DNA from: an uncultured virus (IMG/VR IMGVR_UViG_3300042549_008416)
Taxonomy: Duplodnaviria; Heunggongvirae; Uroviricota; Caudoviricetes
Length of the DNA: 20,000 nucleotides
IMG/VR virus record: IMGVR_UViG_3300042549_008416
Strand: one strand, 5' to 3'
The notes beneath the pieces are model-generated. The model was not told the DNA's origin. It ran no database searches and was given only the letters and a program-made list of their open reading frames with translations. The first letter of the stretch is position 1, and the number at the start of each line of letters is the position of its first letter. This document shows positions 1-20,000 of the stretch, piece by piece. A program made the position numbers and the translations under genes.

Positions 1-1
1 A

Positions 2-1489
2 GAATTTGAAACTTCTGCTGCTGCAAAAAGGTATGTGGAATCTTCAGATTGGAAAAGGCCGTATTCAATTAAAAAAATTGAACCAAAAGTTGCCAGAACT
101 CAATTCGAAGAGGAAGTTTTTGAATACGCTGATGGTGGAGATACAGATTCGCCAGAATCAATCTGGGAATCAACTAAGCCAATCAAAAGAGTAAAAATGC
201 TTGTTAATGCTGCTTTTGATGGTCAAAAATATAAGCATACACAAAATGAATTAATTGAATTTTCAGATTTAGAATGGTCAAGTTTACCAGAAGATATTAG
301 AAGTAAATTAGAATTAGATATATATAAATATGCTGATGGTGGACAATTTGATTTTAAACCTTATGGAAAAACAAAAGGTAGATATAAAATAGAATATGTA
401 GAGGAAGGTAAAAAACAATCTGAAGTTTGGGAATCAAAAGAGATGGTTGAAGATAGAGGTAAAAAATTATTAAAACTTGGATGCACTAATATTAAAATTA
501 CGAAAGTCAAAAAAATGGCTAGGGGTGGAGAACCAAAACCTTCACTAATACCTGATTATAAAAAAATTAGTGGTATCGAAGTTGAAGATATTGATATGGC
601 AGATTATCCAGATTTCTCGGATGCGTACATATCATATGCTGAATATGATGGAGAGCCTATGACAGATGAGCAATTAGAAGAGCTTAATCAAGACGGATAT
701 ATTGTTTATGAAGCTATACAAAGGAGATTATTTGCTGATGGTGGTAAAGTTCGTCAAAATAAAAAAGATAAATTATGGGAATCTATAAAAAATAAATTTT
801 CAGAAATATTCTATTTAAGAGAAACGAATCCAAATGAAATATTTTCAAATGACGTAATAGCCGAAAAAAATGAATATTTATATTTTGCTGCCGCTTGGGT
901 TACAACCACTTTAAGCTTTGAAGAAGCAGAAAATAAATTTATGAAGATGTTGACGGATGATGAGAAAAAAATGATTAAAATAGAACGCAACGTAAAAGAT
1001 ATAAATGAAGCATTCGGTTTAATGTCAGAAAAGAAAATTTTAGTAAAAAGAATTGATAAGATGGCTGATGGCGGGGAGGTTAGTTTATGGAAAGTAGATA
1101 AAAATAAAGTTGAAAAATTAAAAACTGGTAGTAAAAGAGCTATTAAAGGTTACATAACAAAAAACAAACTTGATAGAGCTACTGGAGAGAATTGGGGTTT
1201 GCAAGAGTGGCCAACTGATGTTACTGAAGAACAAATTTTAAGGTATAATCGTTCTAATATGACGGCAACATCTCAAGAATATGCAAGAGGCGGCAAGGTA
1301 AAAAGCAGATGGATTCAAGATGCATTAAGCGGAAACAAAGGGGAACTTCGTAAAACAGCCAAAAGAAAGGGCTTAATCAAAGGAGATGAGAAATTATCAA
1401 ATTCTGACTTACGAAAATTGCAGAAAATGGGCGGTAAAACTGCAAAAAGGGCTCGTTTAGCAGAAACTTTGATAGAATTTAAAAAATAA
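2..1489 (+). CDS. 5'-truncated large modular protein with six [YFM]A[DR]GG motifs (candidate polyprotein / virion core protein)
   Basis: The frame is open from nt 2 (EFETSAAAKRYVESS...), so the GTG at 35 is probably internal. Motifs: YADGG (125), YADGG (329), MARGG (515), FADGG (731), MADGG (1061), YARGG (1280). The last module is very basic (RWIQDAL...KRARLAETL). Confidence 0.85.
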   Translation, partial: EFETSAAAKRYVESSDWKRPYSIKKIEPKVARTQFEEEVFEYADGGDTDSPESIWESTKPIKRVKMLVNAAFDGQKYKHTQNELIEFSDLEWSSLPEDIRSKLELDIYKYADGGQFDFKPYGKTKGRYKIEYVEEGKKQSEVWESKEMVEDRGKKLLKLGCTNIKITKVKKMARGGEPKPSLIPDYKKISGIEVEDIDMADYPDFSDAYISYAEYDGEPMTDEQLEELNQDGYIVYEAIQRRLFADGGKVRQNKKDKLWESIKNKFSEIFYLRETNPNEIFSNDVIAEKNEYLYFAAAWVTTTLSFEEAENKFMKMLTDDEKKMIKIERNVKDINEAFGLMSEKKILVKRIDKMADGGEVSLWKVDKNKVEKLKTGSKRAIKGYITKNKLDRATGENWGLQEWPTDVTEEQILRYNRSNMTATSQEYARGGKVKSRWIQDALSGNKGELRKTAKRKGLIKGDEKLSNSDLRKLQKMGGKTAKRARLAETLIEFKK

Positions 1490-1516
1490 AAGATTAAAAT
1501 TGCGAAAAATAATATT

Positions 1517-1524
1517 TAAATTTG
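1517..1524 (+). promoter_or_regulatory. Bacteroidota-type sigma70 -7 element (TAAATTTG)
   Basis: Exact TAnnTTTG in an intergenic gap, 22 nt upstream of the ATG at 1547. No clear -33 TTTG at canonical spacing. Confidence 0.55.
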
Positions 1525-1546
1525 TAAAAACAGTAAAATTATAATT

Positions 1547-1681
1547 ATGGCAAAGCAAGGCGAAAAAATCAAACTTATCTCAGCTCACGCAAAAAAGATT
1601 TGGAAAAAAGCAGAAGGTGAGAAATGGACTGAAGCCATAAAAAGGGCAAGTGCCGAGCTTAAAAAAGCAGGCAAAATATAA
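1547..1681 (+). CDS. 44 aa small basic protein, putative DNA-binding/condensing protein (not in ORF track)
   Basis: MAKQGEKIKLISAHAKKIWKKAEGEKWTEAIKRASAELKKAGKI*. Lys/Ala-rich with amphipathic helices; TAATT-ATG start context as in neighbouring genes; fills the gap between two ORFs. Confidence 0.8.
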   Translation: MAKQGEKIKLISAHAKKIWKKAEGEKWTEAIKRASAELKKAGKI

Positions 1682-1698
1682 CAAGAAAAAAACTTAAT

Positions 1699-2061
1699 AT
1701 GAGTTTAAAATACGCTGAAAACGCTGTCATTAAAGGATTTGTTGGAATTCCTGACCAATTTGCTATTTATGGTCAAAACAATACATTTACTGATGCCCCA
1801 ACTGCAACACCTGAAGAAAGAATAAATGAAATTTTTAGTATGTCTAACGATTGCAGAGATGGAAGTACCATTTTTGCAGACGAACAAGCATTTCATCCAG
1901 TTTCTCAAGGGTTAACTGCTCAAGTGGTATTATCGGGTTCAGCTCAAGCTGGAACTTCAGCAGAAGCACCTGCACCTCCAATGAAAAAGTTAGAAAATAA
2001 CTTAGCAACTGCTCTTTTAATCGGAGCTGGCGTATTTGTACTTTATAAAATTTTATCATAA
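1699..2061 (+). CDS. hypothetical protein with C-terminal membrane anchor
   Basis: 120 aa; C-terminal LATALLIGAGVFVLYKILS; the stop overlaps the next start (TAATG). Confidence 0.8.
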   Translation: MSLKYAENAVIKGFVGIPDQFAIYGQNNTFTDAPTATPEERINEIFSMSNDCRDGSTIFADEQAFHPVSQGLTAQVVLSGSAQAGTSAEAPAPPMKKLENNLATALLIGAGVFVLYKILS

Positions 2062-2438
2062 TGGAAGAAGCAACATCAGCAACAGCTCCTGCACCAGCAG
2101 CAGCACCAGCCCCAGCGGCAGCACCTGCACCAGAGGCAGCATCTGCACCAGCACCAGCACCAGCACAATCAAGTGGTGGCGGTTTCGGTTCTTCTATTAA
2201 AGAAGCTGTAAGTACTATGAATTGGACTGAAGTTATTTTCGGAGTATTAGGTTCAGCAGCTTTATTTTATACAATTTACTACTATAAATACAATCTCACA
2301 ATGAATAAAACATTCAAAGCTGAGATGCAGAATAAGATTGACGATTTAACTATCAAATTATCTGATATGGAGAGTGCATCTCAAAGAGATATATTGCCTG
2401 CAAACACACCGCAGCAAGGGTTTGATGGTTTCTATTAA
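2061..2438 (+). CDS. membrane protein with Ala/Pro-rich N-terminus, one TM helix and a coiled coil
   Basis: APAPAAAPAP repeats, then VIFGVLGSAALFYTIYYY, then heptad-like MQNKIDDLTIKLSDME. Confidence 0.8.
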   Translation: MEEATSATAPAPAAAPAPAAAPAPEAASAPAPAPAQSSGGGFGSSIKEAVSTMNWTEVIFGVLGSAALFYTIYYYKYNLTMNKTFKAEMQNKIDDLTIKLSDMESASQRDILPANTPQQGFDGFY

Positions 2439-2458
2439 TAGTGAAATAAAAAAATACA

Positions 2459-3106
2459 ATGCAGGTAAATGAATTAAGATTTGGTAATTCAAATCGTACC
2501 ATCCTTGTTTATCTTAAAACAGAAAATTACTTAGATTCTCTCTTACCAGAACTAAGCTCATTCCCGCCACCTGAAAACGATAGCAAAGAAGTATATCAAG
2601 AATTAAATCAACTCATTGAGTATACAAACTTTCTTGAACAAGACGAGCAATTAAGACGTAGATATGAATTATACGATGGTGATTTTGAAAATTACATCAT
2701 TGAAAGATTAGTAAACGTAGGTATAGACAAGCAAGAATTAGAAAAAATTGTCAGAGAGATACACGATGACATACTTCCACTACTTGTTAAACTGAAGGTT
2801 ACATACAATAGGGCTAGACCTTATCAACTAGCATTTTATAAAGGATTAAAGTTATATCCTTTTAAATCTGCAACAGCAGATTCTTCATCATATCCATCAG
2901 GACACACATATCAAGCAAGGATTTACGCTGAAGTATTGGGTAATATGTACCCAAAATTTTATAAAGCCTTACACGATTTAGCTAATGACATTTCTTGGTC
3001 AAGATTATATTTAGGACTTCATTACCCTTCTGATATGGAGTATTCACTTTATGCAGCAGAAGTCGTACTAAAACATCCAGAATTTAGAAAAAAATACAAG
3101 TTATAG
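2459..3106 (+). CDS. PAP2 / acid phosphatase / vanadium haloperoxidase superfamily protein (soluble)
   Basis: All three signature motifs are present in order: KxxxxxxRP (KVTYNRARP), PSGH (SYPSGHT) and SRxxxxxHxxxD (SRLYLGLHYPSD). No TM segments. Confidence 0.9.
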   Translation: MQVNELRFGNSNRTILVYLKTENYLDSLLPELSSFPPPENDSKEVYQELNQLIEYTNFLEQDEQLRRRYELYDGDFENYIIERLVNVGIDKQELEKIVREIHDDILPLLVKLKVTYNRARPYQLAFYKGLKLYPFKSATADSSSYPSGHTYQARIYAEVLGNMYPKFYKALHDLANDISWSRLYLGLHYPSDMEYSLYAAEVVLKHPEFRKKYKL

Positions 3107-3115
3107 TGAAATACA

Positions 3116-3577
3116 ATGGGTGTACACATAAGTCAACTTCCTCAAGAGGTAAAAGATAGGTTAGGGTTAAAAGACCCACAGCATAAGCAATTTTGGGCAA
3201 TTATTGGTTCAAAAGACCCGATATATTTCCGTTCCTCTTGGGAGTATTACTATGCTATATTCCTCGAAAAATTAAAGCAAGAAGGTAAAATAGTCGACTG
3301 GAAGCACGAGCCAAAGTGTTTCTGGTTCGAGAATATTAAGCGTGGGGTTAGGTCATATCTACCTGATTTTTGTGTATTGCATTTAAACGGCACTGAGGAG
3401 TGGGCTGAAGTAAAAGGGTACTATGATTCAAAATCCCAAACAAAGATGAAGAGAATGGCAAAATACTATCCTCAAATCAAGATTAGGCTGGTAGGCTCGG
3501 ATTGGTTCAAAATAAACCTAAAAGCTTGTAAAGCATTAGAGCCTATGCTTGCAAAAGCTGTTCAAAAAGTTTCATAA
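3116..3577 (+). CDS. PD-(D/E)XK endonuclease (DUF1064 / T7 endonuclease I / TnsA-N-like), possible resolvase
   Basis: FRSSWE ... WKHEP ... YLPDF ... WAEVKG catalytic arrangement. Confidence 0.8.
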   Translation: MGVHISQLPQEVKDRLGLKDPQHKQFWAIIGSKDPIYFRSSWEYYYAIFLEKLKQEGKIVDWKHEPKCFWFENIKRGVRSYLPDFCVLHLNGTEEWAEVKGYYDSKSQTKMKRMAKYYPQIKIRLVGSDWFKINLKACKALEPMLAKAVQKVS

Positions 3578-3606
3578 TTTTTTTTAGGTTTTTATGCGGC
3601 ATTGAT

Positions 3607-3614
3607 TATATTTG
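3607..3614 (+). promoter_or_regulatory. Bacteroidota-type -7 element (TATATTTG)
   Basis: Exact TAnnTTTG in the 3578-3644 gap, 30 nt upstream of the ATG at 3645. Confidence 0.55.
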
Positions 3615-3644
3615 TAAATAGAGAAATACTATTGATTTTAGATA

Positions 3645-4085
3645 ATGATAAAAACGGCATCCATTTCAACCAACATATTTGATGAACTCTTTGTAACTAT
3701 TGAGTCTATTGGTGTCGATACTACAATAAAAGTCCTTCAAGAAGCAAGAACAAAAGTGTTGATTTTAGGAGATAACAATGTTGATAATATCATTAATGCA
3801 GTAGTAGAAATAACTGGCGTTCAAAAATCAAGGATATTACACGGAACTGACAGAAGTGATGATAGGAAGATGGCCTTAGCTCTTTGTGTGTATTATATAA
3901 AGAATCAATTTGAATATTCTTATAATGATATGAATAAGATATTTTCAAAAGATAGGGCTGGATTATACAGATATTATTCTTTAATCGATAATATTGCAGC
4001 CAAACCAAAAAATGAATTTGACAAAACACTAAGTGAATATCGGAAACAATTAGAATTATTTATTACTAGAGAAAAAATTAAATAA
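3645..4085 (+). CDS. DNA-binding protein with a DnaA domain IV-like HTH
   Basis: IINAVVEITGV...IL...R...RKMALALCVYYIK..FEYSYNDMNKIFSKDRAGLY resembles the DnaA C-terminal pattern (I...V...FGV....L....R....AR..AMYL.R....SL..IG..F.RDHTTV). No AAA+ domain. Confidence 0.55.
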   Translation: MIKTASISTNIFDELFVTIESIGVDTTIKVLQEARTKVLILGDNNVDNIINAVVEITGVQKSRILHGTDRSDDRKMALALCVYYIKNQFEYSYNDMNKIFSKDRAGLYRYYSLIDNIAAKPKNEFDKTLSEYRKQLELFITREKIK

Positions 4086-4087
4086 CT

Positions 4088-4924
4088 ATGGCAGAAAAAT
4101 TTGAGACAGAAATCATTGAACCTGAAGAAAGGAAAGCAGTAGACTACAATCCTCTTGACGAACAAGTTAATGAGAAAGCGTATACTACTCCAAATACAAA
4201 TACGCAAGGTATTGACTTAAATGCTCCTATACCTGAGCCGAGATTTACTCCTCCGCCAATGGATAAGAGGACAATAAATCAAGAACAAGGAAAACAACCT
4301 AAGCCAGAACCAATGAATCCTGAGATGAAAAATCTTGGGAAAAAAGATACTGAAATGGCGGCAGGTCATATGGCAAAGCTAATCATACAAGGTTATGAGT
4401 GGATGCACCAGTTGGCTAACAAAGGTTTACAAGTCTCTGAAAAAAAATTAAATAAATTACAAGCTGAAGGAGAAATCAATCTTAATGCAATGATTGATTA
4501 CGACTATGGCAAAAAAATTCGTGCTGGAGATTTCTTTATTGAATATAATCAGCAAGTAAGTAATGTATTAACTGTAAGCCAAGAATTTAAAGATGAAGCG
4601 ACTCCGCTGCTTGAAAAAGTCTTAGCGAAGCGTGGTATCGGAATGACAGATGAGCAAATGCTTATGTTTGTATTTGGTAAAGATATTGCAGCTAAGTCTA
4701 TGATATTCTTCCAACAAAAAGCACAGATGAATCATATGTTGGCAAGCATTAAAGAATCAACGATGGCTCAATATGCACAAGCTGCACCGCCACCGCCACC
4801 TCCAATGCAATCTGAACCCCAACCGCAACCGCAACCTACTCAACCTGAAGCAGAATATATCGCAGTAGAACCAGAAGAAGAAGTCGCACCGAAAAAAAGA
4901 GCTGGTAGACCAAGAAAAATTTAA
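4088..4924 (+). CDS. hypothetical protein with Pro/Gln-rich termini and helical core, immediately upstream of the packaging ATPase
   Basis: 278 aa ORF with 2 nt spacing to both neighbours; PPPPPP/QPQPQP tract; basic C-terminal KKRAGRPRK. Confidence 0.85.
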   Translation: MAEKFETEIIEPEERKAVDYNPLDEQVNEKAYTTPNTNTQGIDLNAPIPEPRFTPPPMDKRTINQEQGKQPKPEPMNPEMKNLGKKDTEMAAGHMAKLIIQGYEWMHQLANKGLQVSEKKLNKLQAEGEINLNAMIDYDYGKKIRAGDFFIEYNQQVSNVLTVSQEFKDEATPLLEKVLAKRGIGMTDEQMLMFVFGKDIAAKSMIFFQQKAQMNHMLASIKESTMAQYAQAAPPPPPPMQSEPQPQPQPTQPEAEYIAVEPEEEVAPKKRAGRPRKI

Positions 4925-4926
4925 TT

Positions 4927-5727
4927 ATGGGAAGAGAACCTAAATTACTTGTAGCTGTTGGCAAAAAAGGTGTAGGTAAATCATATACTACAAAAGAAAT
5001 GATGAATCAATATGCTTATGTAAATCCTAAGCGTAGAGTTTTAATTTTAGATGTAAATGATGAATACTTTGACATTAAGGCATTAAGTATACAAGATATT
5101 GGATTGTTTTCAGTACATCCTCAAATCGAAGTAAGGAGAATCAGACCATTTTTAGATAATGGTAAGAGAATGACACTAGATGATATTGCATCAACGCTCT
5201 TTATTATTCTTGAAACATTTAGGAATGGATTACTACTCGTAGAGGATATTAATAAGTATATCAGTGATACTATGCCTAATGACTTGGTAGGTGCTATCTG
5301 TACGAATAGACACATAGGCGTAGACATCATAATGCACTATCAATCTATTGGTAGGATTACATCAAAGGTATGGCAGAACCTAAATATAATTAGGATGCAT
5401 AAGATTACCGATGCTGTAAAGAAGCATAAGCATAAGTTTGAGGATAAGTACGAATACATATCGATAGCAGAGATAATGATTAATCAAGAGTATGAGAAGG
5501 GCAACAAGCACTTCTTTGTATATGTAGACGTAGATGATGAAAAAGTTTATGGCTCGTTTACAACAGCTCAATACGATAACGCAGTAAATATCTTTATACA
5601 GAACAACTATGCAAATGTTATCACTCCTATGCTAAATGCTCGTGGAATGGATGGTAAAAAGGTGCATACAGCCCAATCTGCCATAACTGAATATAAAAGA
5701 AGGCTATTATCTTATATGAAAAAATAG
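4927..5727 (+). CDS. A32/P9-like (FtsK-HerA superfamily) genome packaging ATPase
   Basis: N-terminal Walker A GKKGVGKS, strand VLILD, Walker B LLLVED, and the Arg-finger/Gln-sensor motif NRHIGVDIIMHYQS typical of A32-type ATPases. 266 aa stand-alone, no nuclease domain. Confidence 0.85.
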   Translation: MGREPKLLVAVGKKGVGKSYTTKEMMNQYAYVNPKRRVLILDVNDEYFDIKALSIQDIGLFSVHPQIEVRRIRPFLDNGKRMTLDDIASTLFIILETFRNGLLLVEDINKYISDTMPNDLVGAICTNRHIGVDIIMHYQSIGRITSKVWQNLNIIRMHKITDAVKKHKHKFEDKYEYISIAEIMINQEYEKGNKHFFVYVDVDDEKVYGSFTTAQYDNAVNIFIQNNYANVITPMLNARGMDGKKVHTAQSAITEYKRRLLSYMKK

Positions 5728-5780
5728 TAAAAACAACAGACATTATATACGATTATTGATTAAACAACAATAATCAACGT

Positions 5781-5818
5781 AAAATCATTGACAATAAAAA
5801 GGTCAGTGATTTTTTTTT
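5781..5818 (+). terminator. intrinsic terminator after the ATPase operon
   Basis: AAAATCATTGAC(5781-5792) / 9 nt loop / GTCAGTGATTTT(5802-5813), 12 bp with one G-U pair, continuing into a T-run to 5818. Confidence 0.75.
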
Positions 5819-5834
5819 GTGTTATTTTCCAGCA

Positions 5835-5842
5835 TAAATTTG
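5835..5842 (+). promoter_or_regulatory. Bacteroidota-type -7 element (TAAATTTG), candidate promoter of the capsid gene
   Basis: Exact TAnnTTTG just downstream of the terminator; a TTTG lies at 5816-5819 (15 nt spacer, shorter than typical). Confidence 0.5.
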
Positions 5843-6090
5843 ATACATAATTGTTCTTTGATTGCTATTTCTGGAAGGGTCGATATAAAATCTTGAATTT
5901 GTATTCATTTTTGAATAGAGATTTGGAAGGACTATTAATCTAAGATAGAAGGTAAAACTGGGTAATATAAGTAGAGACTAAGTATTATTTCTTTTGTAAG
6001 ACATAAAATTGAAAATCTATGAGTAGTATCAAGTTGAACTCTGAAATCTTAAAGGAAAGGACAGACTCGTTAAAGGAAAGTTTTTTATGG

Positions 6091-6112
6091 TTTTTAGTAT
6101 TGATACTAAAAA
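6091..6112. promoter_or_regulatory. perfect 10 bp inverted repeat (TTTTTAGTAT-TG-ATACTAAAAA), possible operator
   Basis: Dyad with a 2 nt centre, 76 nt upstream of the ATG at 6189. Confidence 0.35.
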
Positions 6113-6188
6113 AATAAATAATGCCCCCTGAAACACACAAAAAAAAGTAATCATAAAATAAATTTTTAACAAACAAATATTAACTAAA

Positions 6189-6926
6189 ATGTCAGTAAGA
6201 AACTACATCGACAACGCACGCAGAGGTAACTACTCTAATTGGACTGGTGATGCTGCTCCTCAAAATGGTGGCTACCGTAACTTTACAAGTGCCGTTCAAA
6301 CGAACGACCCTCAATCTCCTGTAAGAGCACAAACAAGACCTTTTGCAAACGCAGCTGGTACTGGTAACAATGCTCCTCAATCTCAACCTTACATCTTAAC
6401 TGTAAGCAACGCTTCTGCTGCTGCCGTAAGTAACTTTGATGTATTAGGTGCTTTCACTTATATCGGAAACAGTGGTTTCGCAAATGGTAGCTTGACTATC
6501 TCTGGCGTTACTATCTCTTCTGCTATCAGTAACGTAAACTACCAACAGTTCTTGTATCAATCGATGCAACAGCCATTCTCTGTAGGTCTAACTTACATCG
6601 AGAGTACTTCTGGTACGTCTGCACAAATTACACAAACCTTCACATTAAATACTCAAGATGCGAATGGTAACCAATTATTGAGAACAATCGTTCCAACTAT
6701 TGACCCTTACCAACAACAATCTACAATTGTAGCTGTTAAGCAACAGTATTCTATTGATGGTTTCACTAAGTTAACTTTCAGCACTATTGGTGCGTCAGTT
6801 GTGTTCCGCATTCACTTCTACCCTAGCACAAACATTAACTTGTCTGCTGGTTTACAAGGTCAAAGCGTAGCTCAAGCTTATGGTAATCCTAATATCGTAG
6901 GTGTACCTACTTATATTCAAGGGTAA
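6189..6926 (+). CDS. candidate major capsid protein (jelly-roll type; ~180 aa beta-rich body plus ~60 aa N-terminal extension)
   Basis: Alternating hydrophobic beta-strand pattern and few charged residues. Visibly enriched in C-ending codons (AAC, TAC, ATC, TTC) compared with neighbours. Own leader and terminator; next to the A32-like ATPase. The fold is inferred. Confidence 0.6.
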   Translation: MSVRNYIDNARRGNYSNWTGDAAPQNGGYRNFTSAVQTNDPQSPVRAQTRPFANAAGTGNNAPQSQPYILTVSNASAAAVSNFDVLGAFTYIGNSGFANGSLTISGVTISSAISNVNYQQFLYQSMQQPFSVGLTYIESTSGTSAQITQTFTLNTQDANGNQLLRTIVPTIDPYQQQSTIVAVKQQYSIDGFTKLTFSTIGASVVFRIHFYPSTNINLSAGLQGQSVAQAYGNPNIVGVPTYIQG

Positions 6927-6945
6927 TCCACAAACTCTATAACCG

Positions 6946-6990
6946 AAAAAGGGGGCTATGATTGTCAATCTTTCATAAGCCCCTTTTTTT
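6946..6990 (+). terminator. intrinsic (possibly bidirectional) terminator after the candidate capsid gene
   Basis: AAAAAGGGGGCT-ATGA...TCAT-AAGCCCC-TTTTTTT: GC-rich stem flanked by an A-run and a T-run. Confidence 0.85.
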
Positions 6991-7003
6991 CTAATCATCA
7001 GCA

Positions 7004-7477
7004 ATGACGAATTTTCCGTATGTACAAGAAGTCCTACCTGATGCTCAACCATCAGCGATGAATGTATATGATTATATAGCAAATGTGAATCCTGATGCTG
7101 CAAATAGTGTTTGTAAAAAGTATGGCTACTATCAAATAGAAAATTTAGAAGAGCTTGCTTGGTGTCTTAGACAAATTGTAGCAGATAATGGAGAGGAATC
7201 ATTAAAAAAAGTTATGGAATTGCATCCTGATAAGGAAGTGATTCTTGAATTATTTGAGGTCAAACCTGAACCCAAAAAGGAAGAAATATCTTCAACCCCA
7301 ATTATGATGAATGCTGATGGTAATAAAGACTGCGGCTGCGGATGTGGATATAGATGCGGACTTAATATGAGAAATGCAGACGGAAGTGCATCAACTGGAA
7401 TAGCAAGTCAAACAAATATGATTATCTTAGTAGCTGCTATGATAGTTTCTATTTCTATAATTTCAATGAAAAAATAA
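7004..7477 (+). CDS. C-terminally anchored membrane protein with two NADG motifs flanking a Cys cluster
   Basis: MMNADG-NKDCGCGCGYRCGLN-MRNADG; TM MIILVAAMIVSISIISMKK. Confidence 0.85.
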   Translation: MTNFPYVQEVLPDAQPSAMNVYDYIANVNPDAANSVCKKYGYYQIENLEELAWCLRQIVADNGEESLKKVMELHPDKEVILELFEVKPEPKKEEISSTPIMMNADGNKDCGCGCGYRCGLNMRNADGSASTGIASQTNMIILVAAMIVSISIISMKK

Positions 7478-7480
7478 GTT

Positions 7481-8017
7481 ATGAAACAAAATTTTGCAGG
7501 TCAACCTGATGGTGGTGGTGCTTTAGGATATGCTGGCCCTTTTCCAACTTTAACTGGTAAGGATTTGATGTCAGATGTAAACCCTAATCAATCTACTATT
7601 TTTAGACCTTACCCACGTTTTGTAGATAACTGTAAAACAAAAAAATGTATGAAAAATTCTATGAAGAATTTCGATGATTATAATAATTATGGTAATGAAG
7701 ATTCTGAGACCAATGAAAGAGGCGGCGGATTCTTTTCTTTAGGAAATTTGAATCTAGGTGATTTATTTAGAACTGGTACTACTATTTATAGCGAAACATC
7801 GAGAAATCAAGCTATGAGAGACCAAGCGGCATTAGCACTTCAGATTGAGCAACAAAAAGCAGCTCAGGCTAAAGCTCTTGCACAACAAAAAGCAGCAGAA
7901 TCAGGTTCATATGCAGGTAAAATCAAAGCTTATACAACTCCAATTATTGTTGTTGGTGTATTAACAATTGGTGGTATTGCAGCGTATTTCTACTTTAAAA
8001 AGAAAAAAATTAGCTAA
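7481..8017 (+). CDS. C-terminally anchored membrane protein with Gln/Ala coiled segment
   Basis: QAALALQIEQQKAAQAKALAQQKAA followed by IIVVGVLTIGGIAAYFYFKKKK. The true start could be a downstream Met. Confidence 0.8.
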   Translation: MKQNFAGQPDGGGALGYAGPFPTLTGKDLMSDVNPNQSTIFRPYPRFVDNCKTKKCMKNSMKNFDDYNNYGNEDSETNERGGGFFSLGNLNLGDLFRTGTTIYSETSRNQAMRDQAALALQIEQQKAAQAKALAQQKAAESGSYAGKIKAYTTPIIVVGVLTIGGIAAYFYFKKKKIS

Positions 8018-8589: not shown

Positions 8590-8599
8590 ATTAAATTAG

Positions 8600-8815
8600 A
8601 TGTACGCAAAAAGTTATTTAAAGGCAGTAGGAGACACAAAAAAAAAGGATACGAATACTGTTATTTCTGAAACGACTAAAGGAACAATGGTAGGTGCTGC
8701 AATCGGTGCTGGAATTGGTATCTTTATTGGTTTTGGAAGAAAAAAGAATTTACTTATGAGTGGCTTCGTAGGAGCAGTAATAGGTGGAGCAATATCAAGA
8801 ATTTTTATAAAATAA
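8600..8815 (+). CDS. small glycine-zipper two-helix membrane protein
   Basis: GAAIGAGIGIFIG-RKK-GFVGAVIGGAI (GxxxG arrays). Confidence 0.8.
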   Translation: MYAKSYLKAVGDTKKKDTNTVISETTKGTMVGAAIGAGIGIFIGFGRKKNLLMSGFVGAVIGGAISRIFIK

Positions 8816-8838
8816 ATTACTAACAAAAATCAATTTTT

Positions 8839-8976
8839 ATGTTTAAAAGTGCAGACGCAACAGAAAAAAAACCTTTTTTAGAAACAGCGACTGGAATTGC
8901 TGTATCAGTAGGCGTATTATTCGTTACTGTATGGGTAGTTTCAAAAGCTTGGAAATCAGGACAAAAAACAGCTTAA
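8839..8976 (+). CDS. 45 aa single-TM protein, paralogue A (not in ORF track)
   Basis: MFKSADATEKKPFLETATGIAVSVGVLFVTVWVVSKAWKSGQKTA*; preceded by AAAAATCAAT. Confidence 0.85.
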   Translation: MFKSADATEKKPFLETATGIAVSVGVLFVTVWVVSKAWKSGQKTA

Positions 8977-9004
8977 TTATTATTAACTATAAAAATCAAT
9001 TAAA

Positions 9005-9127
9005 ATGGAGACGAAAAAATTATTAGGAAGTGCTGTAGGTGTTGCAGTTTCTTTAGGATTATTATTCGGTATGGTATGGGTTGCCTCTAAAGCTTGGCAA
9101 AAAGGTCAAGAAAAAAAAGGTTTATAA
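9005..9127 (+). CDS. 40 aa single-TM protein, paralogue B (not in ORF track)
   Basis: METKKLLGSAVGVAVSLGLLFGMVWVASKAWQKGQEKKGL*; clearly similar to 8839-8976; same AAAAATCAAT upstream. Confidence 0.85.
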   Translation: METKKLLGSAVGVAVSLGLLFGMVWVASKAWQKGQEKKGL

Positions 9128-9128
9128 T

Positions 9129-9287
9129 ATGAAAGTAGGTTCTGCTTTAACGACTATTGGAGCAATAGGTGGATTAGCATATGGTGTATCTAAACGAAAA
9201 TCGTTTTGGACAACCGCAGGCTTTACTATTCTATTTGCCATAGCTGGTGCAGCAGTAGGAACTGCTATAAATACAATTTCAGAATAA
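9129..9287 (+). CDS. 52 aa glycine-rich two-helix membrane protein
   Basis: Start revised from 9081 (which overlaps paralogue B) to the ATG at 9129: MKVGSALTTIGAIGGLAYGVSKRKSFWTTAGFTILFAIAGAAVG...; same helix-basic loop-helix layout as 8600-8815. Confidence 0.8.
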   Translation: MKVGSALTTIGAIGGLAYGVSKRKSFWTTAGFTILFAIAGAAVGTAINTISE

Positions 9288-9301
9288 ATTAAAAAAAAAA
9301 A

Positions 9302-10557: not shown

Positions 10558-10560
10558 GTT

Positions 10561-11539: not shown

Positions 11540-11541
11540 TT

Positions 11542-11883: not shown

Positions 11884-11892
11884 ATAAATTTT

Positions 11893-12872: not shown

Positions 12873-13382
12873 ATGAGCTTAAAGAAAACACTTATTGGTG
12901 TAGGAATACTAGGAGGCTTAGGCACATTTGTCTACGCCTTTTATGCTTATGCCAATAGGCAAGCAAAATTATTGGAAGATTTTACTTGGAAACTAATGGG
13001 TGTCAATTTTGACTCTTATTCTTTACAAGCTGTAAAAGGTAAAGTTGAAATTCTTTTTACAAGTAAATCAGATGTAGAGGTTCAAATCCAAAAATTTGTG
13101 ATGACTTTTTATTTTAATGGTGCTGAAGTCGGATATATAGAAGATACAACTCCTTTTATCATACCTGCAAGGGGTACAGCTCCAATCAATTTTAGCTTTA
13201 CCTTGAATCCTCAGCTCGTATTCGGAAATGTAACAAATATAATCAATTATGCCCTACAGAAAGAAGACGCTTCTGTCTCTTTAAGGGGTTTTGCAAGTAT
13301 AAAAAGTGGCTTTGTAAGTGCTACATTGCCAATTACCTACGATTCTACAATTAAGTGCATTTTATACGATAAAAATTGTTAG
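12873..13382 (+). CDS. N-anchored LEA_2/WHy-like beta-sandwich protein
   Basis: TM, then a beta-strand pattern ...SDVEVQIQKFVMTFYFNGAEVG...FIIPARGTAPINFSFTL typical of LEA_2-like domains. Confidence 0.65.
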   Translation: MSLKKTLIGVGILGGLGTFVYAFYAYANRQAKLLEDFTWKLMGVNFDSYSLQAVKGKVEILFTSKSDVEVQIQKFVMTFYFNGAEVGYIEDTTPFIIPARGTAPINFSFTLNPQLVFGNVTNIINYALQKEDASVSLRGFASIKSGFVSATLPITYDSTIKCILYDKNC

Positions 13383-14128: not shown

Positions 14129-17100
14129 ATGTCATTAGGTAATACAAATTTAGGTTTTAGCGGCGGCGGCTCAGGTGGTGGCGGCGGCACTGGAACTAAT
14201 GGTACTTCAGGTCAAACTTTTGGTACATCAGGTACTTCAGGTAATACAGGAACTGCTGGTACATCTGGGGTAAATGGTACATCTGGAGTAAATGGTACTA
14301 ATGGAGAAAGTGGCACTTCAGGTAATACAGGAACTGCTGGTACATCTGGGGTAAATGGAACATCTGGAGTAAATGGTACTAATGGAGAAAGTGGTACTTC
14401 AGGTGCAGACGGTACAAGCGGTGAATCAGGTACTTCAGGTGAATCAGGTACAAGCGGTGAATCAGGTACTTCAGGTGCAGACGGAACAAGCGGTGAGTCA
14501 GGTACTTCAGGAATAGATGGTTCTTCGGGTACAAGCGGTGAATCAGGTACTTCAGGTGAATCAGGTGAATCAGGTACTTCAGGTGAATCAGGTACTTCAG
14601 GTGCAGACGGAACAAGCGGAACTGATGGCTCATCAGGAACTTCAGGAATAGATGGTACAAGTGGAGAAAGCGGTACTTCGGGTATTAGTGGTTCAGACGG
14701 CAGTAGTGGTACAAGTGGAGAAAGTGGCTCTTCGGGTACTAGCGGTGAATCTGGAACAAGCGGAGAAAGTGGTACTTCAGGAATAGATGGTTCTTCGGGT
14801 ACAAGCGGTGAATCAGGTACTTCAGGTGAATCAGGTACTTCAGGTGAATCAGGTACTTCAGGTGCAGACGGAACAAGCGGTGAGTCAGGTACTTCAGGTG
14901 CAGACGGAACAAGCGGAACTGATGGCTCATCAGGAACTTCAGGAATAGATGGTACAAGTGGAGAAAGCGGTACTTCGGGTATTAGTGGTTCAGACGGCAG
15001 TAGTGGTACAAGTGGAGAAAGTGGCTCTTCGGGTACTAGCGGTGAATCTGGAACAAGCGGAGAAAGTGGTACTTCAGGAATAGATGGCTCATCAGGTACT
15101 TCAGGAATAGATGGAACAAGTGGAGAAAGTGGTACTTCGGGAACTGATGGTTCTTCAGGTACTAGCGGTGAATCTGGAACAAGCGGAGAAAGTGGTACTT
15201 CGGGAACTGATGGTTCTTCGGGTACTTCAGGAATTGATGGAACAAGTGGTGAATCTGGAACAAGTGGTACTGATGGCTCATCAGGTACTTCAGGAATAGA
15301 TGGAACAAGTGGAGAAAGTGGTACTTCGGGAACTGATGGTTCTTCAGGTACTAGCGGTGAATCTGGTACAAGTGGCACTGATGGTTTAAGTTGTTTAAGT
15401 TATACTGTAACCTATCAAGTAGGTGGCGGTGATTTATATTTTGATTACAATGATTGCTCGGGTGCTTTAGTAAGTGTGGGGCCTGTAACAAGTGGTTCTT
15501 TAACATTTTGTGCGCTTAGTTTCGGGAGTTCTCCCAGCATAGTTATAATTTCGGGTAATGCTACGATTTTAAGTAACGGAGTTTGCGTAGGCACTGACGG
15601 AAGCTCTGGAACAAGTGGCACTAGCGGTACAGATGGCTCGAGTGGTACTTCGGGAACTTCAGGTGAATCAGGAACAAGCGGAGAAAGTGGTACTTCGGGA
15701 ACTGATGGTTCTTCGGGTACTTCAGGAATTGATGGAACAAGTGGTGAATCTGGAACAAGTGGTACTGATGGCTCATCAGGTACTTCAGGAATAGATGGAA
15801 CAAGTGGAGAAAGTGGTACTTCGGGAACTGATGGTTCTTCAGGTACTAGCGGTGAATCTGGAACAAGCGGAGAAAGTGGTACTTCGGGAACTGATGGTTC
15901 TTCGGGTACTTCAGGAATTGATGGAACAAGTGGTGAATCTGGAACAAGTGGTACTGATGGCTCATCAGGTACTTCAGGAATAGATGGAACTAGCGGAGAA
16001 AGTGGTACAAGCGGTACTGACGGAAGCTCTGGAACAAGTGGCACTAGCGGTACAGATGGCTCTAGCGGAACTTCGGGAACTTCGGGAACGAATGGCTCGA
16101 GTGGTACATCTGGAACTTCAGGTGAATCAGGAACAAGCGGTGAATCTGGTACTAGCGGAGAAAGTGGTACAAGCGGTACTGACGGAAGCTCTGGAACAAG
16201 TGGCACTAGCGGTACAGATGGCTCGAGTGGTACATCTGGAACTTCAGGTGAATCAGGAACAAGCGGTGAATCTGGTACTAGCGGAGAAAGTGGTACAAGC
16301 GGTACTGACGGAAGCTCTGGAACAAGCGGCACTTCGGGAACTGATGGTTCTTCGGGTACAAGTGGTGAATCTGGTACGAGCGGAACTGATGGTTCTTCAG
16401 GAACTTCAGGTACTGACGGCTCTAGCGGTACTTCGGGTACAAGCGGTACTGATGGAAGTTCTGGAACAAGCGGTACGAGCGGAACTGATGGTTCTTCGGG
16501 AACTTCGGGAACATCAGGAACTGACGGCTCTAGCGGTACGAGTGGAGAATCTTCATTATTCTTTGGAACAAGTGGAAACTCAATCTCATTACCATTAAAT
16601 TCAGTAACAACCACGAGTACAACAACAACTACGAGCACAACTGCTCCGCCTCCGCCTACGAGTACAACAACAACTACGAGCACAACTGCTCCGCCTCCGC
16701 CTACAAGTACAACAACAACTACGAGCACAACTGCTCCGCCTCCGCCTACAAGTACAACAACAACTACGAGCACAACTGCTCCTACTACAAGTACAACTAC
16801 GACAAGTACAACGGCTGCTGTTGGTGGATTTACTATAAGCAATCCATCTGGTAGCGGACAAATAGATAATGTTACTACTACGGGTGGGGCATCGTTTTAT
16901 GTGATAAATTCAGGTTCTTTCCCTGTAACAACGGGTAGTAGCGTAGTGGCAGGTCTTGCAAGTTTAACGGGTGACCCAGTAATTGTTGATATATCAAGTT
17001 ATTCATCAACATCGTGTTTATCTTTATATATTAATGGTATATTAAATGAATCACAGACAATTAATGCGAGCGGAACGTATACATTTTCTAATAAAACTTT

Positions 17101-17149
17101 CTCTACAAGTGATACTGTGTTACTTGAATATGTATCAGGAACTTGTTAA
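14129..17149 (+). CDS. Gly-X-Y (collagen-like, proline-free) fibre/spike protein 1
   Basis: About 400 aa of G-X-Y, a 4-Cys insert (15386-15589), about 320 aa of G-X-Y, a Thr/Pro mucin-like tract, and a ~110 aa beta-rich C-terminal domain with two Cys. Confidence 0.85.
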   Translation: MSLGNTNLGFSGGGSGGGGGTGTNGTSGQTFGTSGTSGNTGTAGTSGVNGTSGVNGTNGESGTSGNTGTAGTSGVNGTSGVNGTNGESGTSGADGTSGESGTSGESGTSGESGTSGADGTSGESGTSGIDGSSGTSGESGTSGESGESGTSGESGTSGADGTSGTDGSSGTSGIDGTSGESGTSGISGSDGSSGTSGESGSSGTSGESGTSGESGTSGIDGSSGTSGESGTSGESGTSGESGTSGADGTSGESGTSGADGTSGTDGSSGTSGIDGTSGESGTSGISGSDGSSGTSGESGSSGTSGESGTSGESGTSGIDGSSGTSGIDGTSGESGTSGTDGSSGTSGESGTSGESGTSGTDGSSGTSGIDGTSGESGTSGTDGSSGTSGIDGTSGESGTSGTDGSSGTSGESGTSGTDGLSCLSYTVTYQVGGGDLYFDYNDCSGALVSVGPVTSGSLTFCALSFGSSPSIVIISGNATILSNGVCVGTDGSSGTSGTSGTDGSSGTSGTSGESGTSGESGTSGTDGSSGTSGIDGTSGESGTSGTDGSSGTSGIDGTSGESGTSGTDGSSGTSGESGTSGESGTSGTDGSSGTSGIDGTSGESGTSGTDGSSGTSGIDGTSGESGTSGTDGSSGTSGTSGTDGSSGTSGTSGTNGSSGTSGTSGESGTSGESGTSGESGTSGTDGSSGTSGTSGTDGSSGTSGTSGESGTSGESGTSGESGTSGTDGSSGTSGTSGTDGSSGTSGESGTSGTDGSSGTSGTDGSSGTSGTSGTDGSSGTSGTSGTDGSSGTSGTSGTDGSSGTSGESSLFFGTSGNSISLPLNSVTTTSTTTTTSTTAPPPPTSTTTTTSTTAPPPPTSTTTTTSTTAPPPPTSTTTTTSTTAPTTSTTTTSTTAAVGGFTISNPSGSGQIDNVTTTGGASFYVINSGSFPVTTGSSVVAGLASLTGDPVIVDISSYSSTSCLSLYINGILNESQTINASGTYTFSNKTFSTSDTVLLEYVSGTC
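14186..16553 (+). repeat. 9 bp-periodic Gly-X-Y coding repeat with higher-order duplications
   Basis: ggN-acN-tcN/agY units; 81 bp duplication near 14234-14400; 297 bp-period duplication (14644 vs 14941); 189 bp-period duplication (15721 vs 15910). Confidence 0.9.
16613..16783 (+). repeat. 45 bp tandem repeat encoding TSTTTTTSTTAPPPP (3 full + 1 partial copy)
   Basis: ac(g/a)agtacaacaacaactacgagcacaactgctccgcctccgcct repeated almost identically. Confidence 0.95.
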
Positions 17150-17176: not shown

Positions 17177-20000
17177 ATGGCTTTTTCTAATATTACCATA
17201 GCAGCTAACACAGGTTTATCATTCGTAGCGGGACAATATGTTCAAGTTATTCATGACATAAACAATTATTTTGTTGGTCAAGTTATATCATACAATCCAA
17301 CTACTGGAAGTATGACAATAGCTCCAGAAGTAAGTGTTGGTTCAGGTAGTTTTTCTACTTGGGAAGTTGTATTATCAGGACAATTTGGTACTAATGGTTC
17401 AAGCGGTACATCTGGTTTAAGCGGCACAAGGGGAACAAGTGGTTCAAGTGGTACAAGTGGAATAAGTGGTTCAAGTGGTACAAGCGGAACTGATGGTTCT
17501 TCGGGTACAAGTGGTGAATCTGGAACAAGCGGTGAAAGTGGTACAAGCGGTGAAAGTGGTACAAGCGGAACTGATGGTTCTTCGGGTACAAGTGGTGAAT
17601 CTGGAACAAGCGGTGAAAGTGGTACAAGCGGAACTGATGGTTCTTCAGGAACTTCAGGTACTGACGGAAGCTCTGGAACAAGTGGCACTAGCGGTACAGA
17701 TGGCTCTAGCGGAACTTCGGGAACTTCGGGAACGAATGGCTCGAGTGGTACATCTGGAACTTCAGGTGAATCAGGAACAAGCGGTACAGATGGCTCGAGT
17801 GGTACATCTGGAACTTCAGGTGAATCAGGAACAAGCGGAACTTCGGGAACTGATGGTTCTTCAGGAACTTCAGGTACTGACGGAAGCTCTGGAACAAGTG
17901 GCACTAGCGGTACAGATGGCTCTAGCGGAACTTCGGGAACTTCGGGAACGAATGGCTCGAGTGGTACATCTGGAACTTCAGGTGAATCAGGAACAAGCGG
18001 TGAATCTGGTACTAGCGGAGAAAGTGGTACAAGCGGTACTGACGGAAGCTCTGGAACAAGTGGCACTAGCGGTACAGATGGCTCGAGTGGTACTTCGGGT
18101 ACAAGTGGAACAGATGGTTCAAGCGGTACTTCAGGTACTGACGGAAGCTCTGGAACAAGTGGTACTTCGGGTACAGATGGTTCAAGTGGCACTAGCGGAA
18201 CTGATGGCTCATCAGGAACTTCAGGAATAGATGGAACAAGTGGTACTTCGGGTACAAGCGGAACTGATGGTTCTAGCGGAACTAGCGGAACTTCGGGAAC
18301 TTCGGGTAGCTCGGGTACAAGCGGAACTAATGGTTCAAGCGGTACATCGGGTACTTCAGGAACGAATGGTTCTTCGGGTACTTCGGGTACTTCGGGTACT
18401 TCGGGTAGCTCGGGTACAAGCGGAACTAATGGTTCAAGCGGCACTTCGGGTTCTTCAGGAACTTCGGGAACTTCGGGTAGCTCGGGTACAAGCGGAACTA
18501 ATGGTTCTTCAGGAACATCGGGAACGAATGGTTCAAGCGGTACAGATGGTTCAAGTGGCACTAGCGGAACTGATGGCTCATCAGGAACTTCAGGAATAGA
18601 TGGAACAAGTGGTACTTCGGGTACAAGCGGAACTGATGGTTCTAGCGGAACTAGCGGAACTTCGGGTACAAGCGGAACTAATGGTTCAAGCGGCACATCG
18701 GGTACTTCAGGAACGAATGGTTCTTCAGGAACATCGGGAACGAATGGTTCAAGCGGTACATCGGGAACATCGGGTACGAATGGCTCTAGCGGAACTTCGG
18801 GAACATCGGGTACGAATGGCTCTTCTGGAACTTCGGGTACAAGCGGAACTAATGGTTCTTCAGGAACATCGGGAACGAATGGCTCAAGCGGTACTAATGG
18901 TTCAAGCGGTACATCGGGAACATCGGGTACGAATGGCTCTAGCGGAACTTCGGGAACTTCGGGAACGAATGGCTCTTCTGGAACTTCGGGTACAAGCGGA
19001 ACTAATGGTTCAAGCGGCACATCGGGTACTTCAGGAACGAATGGTTCTTCTGGAACTTCAGGTAGCTCGGGTACAAGCGGTACTAATGGTTCAAGCGGTA
19101 CATCGGGAACATCGGGTACGAATGGCTCTAGCGGTACATCGGGAACTTCAGGAACGAATGGTTCTTCTGGAACTTCAGGTAGCTCGGGTACAAGCGGAAC
19201 TAATGGTTCAAGCGGTACATCGGGAACATCGGGTACGAATGGCTCTAGCGGAACTTCGGGTACAAGCGGAACTAATGGTTCAAGCGGCACATCGGGTACT
19301 TCAGGTAGCTCGGGTACAAGCGGTACGAATGGCTCTAGCGGAACTTCGGGAACTTCGGGAACGAATGGTTCTTCAGGAACATCGGGTACTTCAGGTAGCT
19401 CGGGTACAAGCGGTACGAATGGCTCTAGCGGAACTTCGGGAACTTCGGGAACGAATGGTTCTTCAGGAACATCGGGTACTTCAGGTAGCTCGGGTACAAG
19501 CGGAACTAATGGTTCTTCAGGAACATCGGGTACAAGCGGAACTAATGGTACAAGTGGTTCTTCTGGAACTTCGGGAACTAATGGTTCAAGCGGTACATCG
19601 GGAACAAGTGGTTCTTCTGGAACTTCGGGAACTAATGGTTCAAGCGGTACATCGGGAACAAGCGGAACTTCTGGTTTAAGCGGCACTTCTGGAACTTCGG
19701 GAACTTCGGGTAGCTCGGGTACAAGCGGTACTAATGGTTCTTCTGGAACTTCGGGAACTTCAGGAACGAATGGTTCAAGCGGTACATCGGGAACATCGGG
19801 TACGAATGGCTCTAGCGGCACATCGGGTACTTCAGGTAGCTCGGGTACAAGCGGTACGAATGGCTCTAGCGGAACTTCGGGAACTTCGGGTAGCTCGGGT
19901 ACAAGCGGTACTAATGGTTCAAGCGGTACATCGGGAACATCGGGTACGAATGGCTCTAGCGGAACTTCGGGAACTTCGGGAACGAATGGCTCTTCTGGAA
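17177..20000 (+). CDS. Gly-X-Y fibre/spike protein 2, 3'-truncated (not in ORF track because it has no stop in the window)
   Basis: ATG 17177: MAFSNITIAANTGLSFVAGQYVQVIHDINNYFVGQVISYNPTTGSMTIAPEVSVGSGSFSTWEVVLSGQFG, then about 870 aa of G-X-Y in the same frame to the window end. Confidence 0.9.
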   Translation, partial: MAFSNITIAANTGLSFVAGQYVQVIHDINNYFVGQVISYNPTTGSMTIAPEVSVGSGSFSTWEVVLSGQFGTNGSSGTSGLSGTRGTSGSSGTSGISGSSGTSGTDGSSGTSGESGTSGESGTSGESGTSGTDGSSGTSGESGTSGESGTSGTDGSSGTSGTDGSSGTSGTSGTDGSSGTSGTSGTNGSSGTSGTSGESGTSGTDGSSGTSGTSGESGTSGTSGTDGSSGTSGTDGSSGTSGTSGTDGSSGTSGTSGTNGSSGTSGTSGESGTSGESGTSGESGTSGTDGSSGTSGTSGTDGSSGTSGTSGTDGSSGTSGTDGSSGTSGTSGTDGSSGTSGTDGSSGTSGIDGTSGTSGTSGTDGSSGTSGTSGTSGSSGTSGTNGSSGTSGTSGTNGSSGTSGTSGTSGSSGTSGTNGSSGTSGSSGTSGTSGSSGTSGTNGSSGTSGTNGSSGTDGSSGTSGTDGSSGTSGIDGTSGTSGTSGTDGSSGTSGTSGTSGTNGSSGTSGTSGTNGSSGTSGTNGSSGTSGTSGTNGSSGTSGTSGTNGSSGTSGTSGTNGSSGTSGTNGSSGTNGSSGTSGTSGTNGSSGTSGTSGTNGSSGTSGTSGTNGSSGTSGTSGTNGSSGTSGSSGTSGTNGSSGTSGTSGTNGSSGTSGTSGTNGSSGTSGSSGTSGTNGSSGTSGTSGTNGSSGTSGTSGTNGSSGTSGTSGSSGTSGTNGSSGTSGTSGTNGSSGTSGTSGSSGTSGTNGSSGTSGTSGTNGSSGTSGTSGSSGTSGTNGSSGTSGTSGTNGTSGSSGTSGTNGSSGTSGTSGSSGTSGTNGSSGTSGTSGTSGLSGTSGTSGTSGSSGTSGTNGSSGTSGTSGTNGSSGTSGTSGTNGSSGTSGTSGSSGTSGTNGSSGTSGTSGSSGTSGTNGSSGTSGTSGTNGSSGTSGTSGTNGSSG

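Follow-up and report, generated by a model that had tools for sequence, protein, structure and literature searches.

Small unrelated modules joined by a conserved Gly-Gly seam peptide in the array gene of an uncultured lake-water phage

Why would a phage string small, unrelated protein modules into one chain and place the same short peptide at every junction? The question is raised by the gene that opens a 20,000-nucleotide (nt) stretch of record IMGVR_UViG_3300042549_008416, from an uncultured lake-water phage; this whole stretch is called the window here, and positions are counted from its first letter. The gene, termed the array gene, encodes a chain of modules separated by a Gly-Gly-containing peptide, the seam. 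A first-pass annotation made from the letters had read it as a cassette-like polyprotein whose linkers serve as protease sites or capsid-targeting tags for loading small effectors into the virion. Combining sequence searches, metagenome contigs and structure prediction, we conclude with high confidence that the gene is a cassette array in which modules are inserted, deleted and reordered at the seams.

The window edge truncates the array gene (Table 1), and the whole protein is represented by P0002 (630 amino acids, aa), which is 100 % identical over the 495 aa of the open reading frame (ORF) in the window and, beyond it, begins with MVKKPRKRFDTG and holds two further modules on the N-terminal side as well as a seventh seam, MAKGG. 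Within the ORF, the six [YFM]-A-[DR]-G-G motifs of the first-pass annotation are all present where it had placed them, spaced 68, 62, 72, 110 and 73 aa apart and followed by a final module of 64 aa. From composition, 0.0015 matches to the seam pattern are expected in 495 aa, and among 100,000 shuffles of those residues 147 contained one match and none more than one. The looser pattern [YFMLIW]A[DRENK]GG has no other match in any of the six frames of the 20-kb window, so that more proteins of this ADGG type, for which a scan of the rest of the genome had been proposed, were not met with outside the array ORF in this stretch. A further GG (KMGGK, aa 477), which does not vary in the family of the last module, lies within that module and is no seam. 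As had also been claimed, the sequences between the motifs are not repeats of each other and differ strongly in charge: at the clustering thresholds used here the eight modules of P0002 fall into eight different clusters, and their net charge spans -13 (the DYPDF module) to +13 (the WIQDAL...KRARLAETL module).

Exchange at the seams is plain among the relatives of this protein. A word-seeded search returned 122 relatives at E <= 0.001, of which the 120 listed underlie the counts given for 120 proteins here; across 1.84 billion representatives, HMMER run exhaustively gave 813 matches at E <= 0.001, 158 at <= 1e-10 and 13 at <= 1e-30, most of them covering only 10-45 % of the query. When the 120 relatives are split at their seams, 886 segments with a median length of 61 aa result. 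Some of these (138) are shorter than 10 aa and represent empty tandem seams such as ADGGMMAKGG, while the segments of at least 20 aa form 261 clusters, including 158 singletons. The 120 proteins display 117 different architectures. Cluster pairs seen in both orders number 28 out of 1252 that co-occur, and the basic C-terminal module, found in 83 of the 120 proteins, is the last module in 39 copies, internal in 38 and the first in six. Where internal BLASTP segments end on P0002, 222 of 350 ends lie no more than 8 aa from a seam, versus 19 % expected; the p-value of this enrichment overstates the case because the matches are related and not independent.

The same pattern can be read in the DNA. 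Three metagenome contigs (L003, L004 and L005) are 86-97 % identical to the window, with the similarity limited to nt 1-138 (1-117 in L004), 515-1074 and 1288 onward, which places nearly all block ends inside seams 1, 3, 5 and 6. In L003 and L005 the similarity continues through the first flanking gene and into the beginning of the second, in L003 as far as nt 2116. L003 carries three tandem array genes (at least 215, 999 and 230 aa) ahead of the same small gene that occupies 1699-2061 in the window, and thus the locus varies between conserved flanks. The gain and loss of modules at motif boundaries that the first-pass annotation had proposed to look for in related genomes is borne out, both by the 117 architectures and by DNA breaks inside the seams. 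The exact window variant, without any difference, occurs in contigs of all four lake-water runs (2020 to 2024) considered, which are possibly the source of the window and are not independent. Three of the four (X1, X6 and X12) contain a contig of 6.5-12 kb that matches the window only at nt 122-139 and 319-343, i.e. in 18-25 nt of seam DNA, the two matches being separated by approximately 1.1 kb of different sequence. Beyond these, megablast of window positions 1-8000 against cultured phages gave no match, an exact 41-nt pattern taken from the window was without a match in IMG/VR, a metagenome scan returned three short contigs only, and a scan of the genome collection gave no match with P0002 and one contig of a metagenome-assembled genome with the basic module; among public sequencing runs, no RNA run is listed as carrying the array.

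What is conserved at the seam is best described from the larger set of proteins collected. At 1727 GG sites in 229 proteins, Y, F, M or W stands at -3 in 1106 and Ala at -2 in 772, and the context can be written [YMF]-A-[KDR]-G-G-[KEM]-[VTIL], with K or E and then V, T, I or L preferred after the GG. All four Gly codons (GGT, GGA, GGC and GGG) are used in seams, and third codon positions hold little information (0.46-0.73 bits), which indicates that selection acts on the peptide. A core of GCT GAT GGT GG is common to many seams and could still help recombination; judged from codon usage, however, DNA conservation alone does not explain the conservation of the seam. The peptide also comes in dialects: [YFM]-A-[DKR]-G-G-[KE]-V in the window lineage, [YF]-x-N-G-G-G-V in the 102-kb IMG/VR record G001 and in L034 and L036, and x-A-K-G-G in L033. 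A different motif, [FY]-x-N-[AF]-x-G, occurs once in the 6012 aa of the window ORFs, which is no more than chance. No literature on such Gly-Gly linkers in phage proteins was found, phage relevance being judged by title and the start of the abstract.

In the AlphaFold2 model of P0002 (alignment of 39 rows) the chain resembles beads on a string, with a mean predicted local distance difference test score (pLDDT) of 56 and a predicted template modelling score (pTM) of 0.26. Modules are predicted confidently at aa 121-160 (pLDDT 84-90) and aa 261-303 (approximately 91). All seven seams lie in coil with pLDDT < 50 (106-117, 164-225, 246-253, 307-313, 380-387, 489-501 and 548-582); motifs inside folded domains had been named as a sign against a cassette, and the model instead puts seven of seven in low-confidence coil between modules. 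Foldseek of this model, which is poor overall (pLDDT 56), gave no match in the PDB at E <= 0.001. Seams predicted to be unstructured, varying Gly codons and the exchange of modules together mark the locus as a fast-changing set of small proteins. In the G001 lineage, tandem arrays (L001:5987-11197, L034:14291-20606, and L036:4105-6237 and 10195-12378) all end in the same module of approximately 40 aa, ...G..PNYP...VG...L.KC.LRP.YK.. (also written ...PNYP...KCFLRPYY...). Several arrays of that lineage open with a Cys-containing start (MCGCE.., MRGCKYKN..). These starts and the end module may be lineage-specific end tags, and conserved ends around a variable interior fit a role of the termini in loading or anchoring.

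The nearest known class is that of the polyvalent proteins, in which several (2-15) unrelated domains are joined in one polypeptide of phages or conjugative elements, and for which delivery with DNA and possible proteolytic release by embedded peptidases have been proposed (Iyer, Burroughs, Anand, de Souza and Aravind 2017, PMC5512222). Likenesses include the composition of P0002 from eight modules in as many clusters, the phage-type gene content of the window and the extreme mosaicism of the array's relatives, with their 117 architectures in 120 proteins. Relatives, though not P0001 or P0002, also carry domains of the polyvalent repertoire (ART-PolyVal, LPD11, ArdA, RadC and Zeta toxin), which places the family among the polyvalent proteins. 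In contrast to those proteins, the array has small modules (median 61 aa) that mostly belong to no known family, a stereotyped seam at every junction and, in the window's protein, no peptidase domain. The main text of PMC5512222 makes no mention of a linker or glycine motif. An embedded MPTase is also unlikely for the arrays collected here, as HExxH occurs in only four of 230 proteins and no site is peptidase-like. On these sequence comparisons, the array is a small-module form of the polyvalent proteins with one seam peptide at each junction.

Several modules exist outside arrays. The acidic module matches PHROG family 28889 (64 positions) and is found alone as proteins of 64-73 aa (e.g. P0191 and P0219) that end at an aromatic residue, while the basic module matches family 20603 (59 positions), follows MAKGG in P0165 and also closes a 144-aa protein in Rhizobium phages. 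P0140 (130 aa) is made up of the 105-aa module preceded by a hydrophobic leader and a single seam, and single-gene relatives of another module of the family occur in cultured phages, KVP40-like and phiM12-like ones among them. The first-pass impression that the acidic and basic modules resemble stand-alone small phage proteins is thereby supported, with a third module, that of 105 aa, nearly free-standing as well. Its proposal that the modules are anti-defence effectors has partial support: relatives carry anti-restriction and conflict domains (ArdA, RadC, DUF4314 and DUF2958 in five of 11 module-sharing relatives scanned), and Pfam families (ART-PolyVal, LPD11, Zeta_toxin, GNAT, DUF5661, DUF5824, DUF7659 and others) appear in ten of 65 long arrays, 55 having none; on the other side, neither P0001 nor P0002 matches a Pfam family above threshold. 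Arrays are poor in cysteine, at 0.16 % versus 0.65 % in the window's other ORFs. In the mini-arrays P0140, P0143 and P0144 (also P0156, P0175 and P0207), a membrane-helix-like leader (MIPYLLAAVGGYLIG...) replaces the basic leader and is followed by one seam and one to three modules; some arrays may thus be membrane-anchored. A further variant is a 215-aa, very basic protein of the complete 58-kb podovirus record G005 (L025:619-1263, minus strand), encoded a few genes upstream of the terminase, with MAKGG, SEYGG and MAFGG seams 6-30 aa apart. Similar ORFs occur in L010, L013, L016 and L018, cutting would turn the protein into short basic peptides, and tblastn of it against cultured phages gave no match.

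Is the array protein carried in the virus particle? The only pointer, an indirect one, comes from Bacteroides phage crAss001, whose gp45 (cargo protein C1) is a virion protein by mass spectrometry and cryo-electron microscopy, the latter resolving segment 214-245 in the tail barrel and segment 425-552 on the portal (Bayfield et al. 2023, PMC10172136). gp45 starts with MAKKKIKRRGKMPPNIFDTGG, and the array leader reads MAKKPRKRFDTG(G), a pattern of MAKK..KR.FDTG. Two seams of gp45, FAEGG at 260-264 and FAYGG at 559-563, come directly after the resolved segments, the second also just past the Pfam CARG1 domain (PF25725) at 424-555, and its C-terminus holds AKGGKV. P0002 is thus like gp45 in having a basic leader that ends in FDTGG and seams of the [F]-A-x-G-G type. 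It is unlike gp45 in that no module is held in common and seams are denser, seven in 630 aa versus three in 842 aa. Since PF25725 (crAss_CARG1) matches gp45 (E 2.3e-66, residues 424-555) and neither P0002 nor the L033 and L034 arrays, the likeness is confined to leader and seam, and crAss001 is not among the matches listed for tblastn with P0001 and P0023. Recurrence of leader and seam in a virion protein nevertheless favours delivery in the particle, and by this analogy the array protein is somewhat more probably carried there than not. In the 2018 crAss001 paper, the text lists the sizes of bands without naming the one that held gp45. In the crAss001 record, gp66 (L037:43492-44007) is annotated as an aspartyl protease.

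If the seams are cut, an enzyme must be sought. Adenain and the African swine fever virus (ASFV) protease pS273R cut core polyproteins at Gly-Gly, with a consensus of (M/I/L)XGG|X for adenain. The array resembles their substrates in its repeated Gly-Gly motifs with an upstream hydrophobic residue and in possibly maturing in a particle. It differs from the adenain consensus in register, its hydrophobic residue standing five and not four places before a cut after GG, and from both systems in that no clan CE protease was found and Gly-Gly cutting is a proposal only. The adenain/Ulp1-like protease that the first-pass annotation had suggested seeking in the genome did not turn up where it was sought: the window's 24 other ORFs match no protease family at E <= 0.001, and PF02902 is found in none of five related virus records (two of them at least 90 % complete), in a search that did not include PF00770. 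Another model is provided by the internal proteins IPI-III of phage T4, which carry an N-terminal capsid-targeting sequence and are trimmed by the gp21 prohead protease at an L/I-x-E site. These are small anti-restriction proteins, loaded by a short leader and trimmed inside the head before they are injected together with the DNA, but they are encoded one per gene, without arrays and without Gly-Gly.

A candidate is P0231, a predicted zincin (Table 1). It contains HEFSH at 186-190 and DDEVEAD at 198-204, and five residues (H186, E187, H190, E200 and D204) do not vary among 26 sequences, one of which, a homologue in G001, is only 39 % identical; a downstream Glu is probably the third zinc ligand. 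Relatives of P0231 number 938 and occur on contigs as long as 182 kb. Its model (pLDDT 87.9, pTM 0.87) has the beta-sandwich at aa 1-96 followed by the helical domain, and for residues 109-253 VIA-align places BepA, an M48 peptidase, on top (Z 8.8, root-mean-square deviation 4.2, 121 aligned), ahead of 3c37 (6.8), ZMPSTE24 (6.3), Ste24 (6.1) and abylysin (5.9), although a Z near 8 can come from a common arrangement of helices. Foldseek proposes selecase (4qhf) with a probability of 0.99 but an E of 0.02, Pfam gives only a weak match to Peptidase_M91 (E 0.051), and leads in the protein atlas are metallopeptidase clusters at 0.86 and 0.81. With P0231, tblastn against cultured phages found no match, and searching PDB sequences with a profile of the zincin yielded no useful match. 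A predicted complex of the zincin, zinc and residues 236-392 of P0002 scored 0.00, which speaks neither for nor against binding. Seam arrays lie within 10 kb of a P0231 homologue in all four IMG/VR loci, or five of five with the window. From its sequence features and model, P0231 is a candidate seam-processing enzyme only.

Taken together, these data can be accommodated by a reading of the array as a cassette-built, particle-delivered carrier of effectors with seams read by a protease, which as a whole we consider plausible while falling just short of probable. The protein would consist of a short basic leader (MVKKPRKRFDTG) and eight small, unrelated and independently folding modules of 57-114 aa, joined by the single conserved seam peptide [YFM]-A-[DKR]-G-G-[KE]-V. 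Like gp45 of crAss001, it would be packaged in the particle and enter the cell together with the DNA, and the seam would be the recognition site of a virus-encoded protease, possibly the M48-like zincin, that frees the modules as proteins of approximately 60 aa. Judging by the ArdA, ADP-ribosyltransferase, RadC, Zeta-kinase and GNAT modules of relatives, the modules would then have early targets in host defences or host processes. A number of observations weigh against this reading. Cutting has been observed nowhere, the passages on gp45 in PMC10172136 do not discuss processing, and a pure cut site does not explain why the free-standing basic module P0165 keeps MAKGG at its own start. The zincin of the window lies 9 kb from the array, its co-location with arrays in five of five loci involves related viruses and could simply reflect synteny, and it cannot be a general reader of the seam, as the G005 record has seam proteins and no zincin homologue. 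Additionally, the array's neighbours in the window are not recognisable as virion genes, and the functions of its modules are inferred from relatives, the window protein being without a Pfam match.

That the seams are cut is the use we favour over a hinge, a docking handle or a recombination scar, if tentatively and with some doubt. The protein might instead be carried and ejected whole, with Gly-Gly as flexible hinges that let the domains thread one by one through a narrow exit channel and with the hydrophobic residues beside it merely capping the adjacent domains. Such a passage has precedents, since the crAss001 authors picture gp45 as one chain that runs from capsid to tail and partly unfolds on ejection (PMC10172136), and the N4 virion RNA polymerase and some other polyvalent proteins are packaged unprocessed (PMC5512222). 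It also agrees with the prediction of the seams as coil, with the scarcity of cysteine in arrays and with the aromatic residue at -3, which is the native last residue of free-standing acidic modules such as P0191 and P0219. A hinge, however, has no need of Ala at -2, of K, D or R at -1, of K or E and then V after GG, or of lineage dialects, and unrelated modules that are separate small proteins elsewhere gain nothing obvious from a tether; we hold it to be somewhat unlikely.

Leader and seam could, alternatively, be docking handles bound by a particle component or loading factor, with or without later cutting. This would make sense of P0165, with its MAKGG ahead of a single module, of the many empty tandem seams (138 of 886 segments) and of the motif after a basic leader at the very start of gp45 and of 33 of 173 Met-starting seam-rich proteins, the rest including many fragments. 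Yet in crAss001 gp45 the segments seen on the portal and in the tail barrel stop just short of the two internal seams, a binding partner is not known, and tandem seams could equally well be scars of deletions between seams; we regard handles as unlikely. Least likely, indeed improbable, is a seam without protein function, kept as DNA microhomology for recombination and homogenised by concerted evolution. Breakpoints inside seams, the shared core GCT GAT GGT GG and the different arrays of the same lake samples that share only 18-25 nt of seam DNA are what it predicts; the low information at third positions (0.46-0.73 bits), the use of all four Gly codons and the retention of the peptide in lineages whose DNA is not similar to the window, namely crAss001 and, in a dialect of its own, G001, are not.

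Table 1. Coordinates of the array gene, its seams and modules, and further features of the window
Feature	Position (nt)	Strand	Remarks
Array gene	2..1489	+	5'-truncated by window edge; last 495 of 630 aa of P0002
Module, cut by window edge	2..124	+	P0002 aa 120-176; AlphaFold2 pLDDT 84-90 over aa 121-160
Seam 1, YADGG	125..139	+	Similarity to L003 stops at nt 138, to L004 at 117
Module, 63 aa	140..328	+	Net charge -4; rare cluster (4/120 proteins)
Seam 2, YADGG	329..343	+	Pattern scan
Module, 57 aa, PYGKTKG...	344..514	+	Net charge +7; pLDDT ~91; in 23/120 relatives
Seam 3, MARGG	515..529	+	DNA similarity to L003 and L004 begins at nt 515
Acidic module, 67 aa, DYPDF...	530..730	+	Net charge -13; matches PHROG 28889
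Seam 4, FADGG	731..745	+	Pattern scan
Module, 105 aa	746..1060	+	Near-free-standing relative P0140
Seam 5, MADGG	1061..1075	+	DNA similarity to L003, L004 and L005 stops at nt 1074
Module, 68 aa, EVSLWKVDK...	1076..1279	+	Net charge +3
Seam 6, YARGG	1280..1294	+	DNA similarity to L003, L004 and L005 picks up again at nt 1288
Basic helical module, 64 aa, WIQDAL...GGKTAKRA...	1295..1486	+	Net charge +13; matches PHROG 20603; in 83/120 relatives
Two small genes with hydrophobic segments, 3' of array	1699..2438	+	Conserved right flank of variable locus
PAP2-type phosphatase	2459..3106	+	
HerA/FtsK-type ATPase, 266 aa	4927..5727	+	Pfam DUF87; PHROG 2666, labelled terminase
Candidate processing enzyme P0231, 260 aa	10561..11343	+	Beta-sandwich, then M48/minigluzincin-like HExxH domain
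LEA_2-domain protein	12873..13382	+	Homologue in G001
Very long collagen-repeat protein	14129..17149	+	Pfam Collagen, E 1e-101
Very long collagen-repeat protein	17177..19999	+	Pfam Collagen, E 1e-125

The remainder of the window says little about the type of virus. No capsid gene, terminase or tailed-phage hallmark gene was identified in its 20 kb. With the HerA/FtsK-type ATPase as query, IMG/VR gave no related locus; none of four related records yielded a match to the ATPase, to Terminase_6N or to DUF87, and a PDB sequence search with the ATPase gave nothing useful. The LEA_2 protein and the ORFs at 6189-6926 and 11893-12456 have homologues in G001 and, judged by these matches, form with the zincin a small core shared with that distant relative; tblastn of ORF 6189-6923 against cultured phages gave no match. 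The seeming gap at 8590-9301 contains several small ORFs (44-76 aa) with hydrophobic helices, and small membrane proteins are numerous in the window. The tail-fibre matches of the two collagen-repeat proteins in PHROGs are due to the repeats, and the collagen repeat most likely also accounts for long antisense ORFs (e.g. 15445-16842 and 17278-19998). Window positions 1-2600 hold no terminator-like site, with promoter-like sites at chance level, and the window has no Rfam family and no tRNA.

The array matters because polyvalent and cargo proteins are thought to be a main route by which ready-made counter-defence proteins of phages enter the cell. A seven-residue seam at every junction, conserved across groups without DNA similarity, names the exact residues at which cutting can be tested, and the seam offers a simple rule by which orphan metagenomic proteins, in their thousands, could be divided into small candidate effectors, as the 261 clusters in 120 proteins illustrate. 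It also hints at how proteins might be loaded into phage particles by a natural plug-and-play design. Going further, [aromatic/Met]-x-x-Gly-Gly together with a basic leader may be a cassette code across Bacteroidota-type viruses of unrelated build, in which effectors are loaded, diced and injected while the seam DNA serves as the recombination joint; this generalisation is a fairly unlikely one on the likenesses now at hand. Were it true, any effector gene placed between two seams would enter the particle by means of a single leader and be diced by a particle-associated protease, here the M48-like zincin. The host cell would then receive an injected mix of anti-defence proteins of approximately 60 aa, under a code common to crAss-like tailed phages and the lake group.

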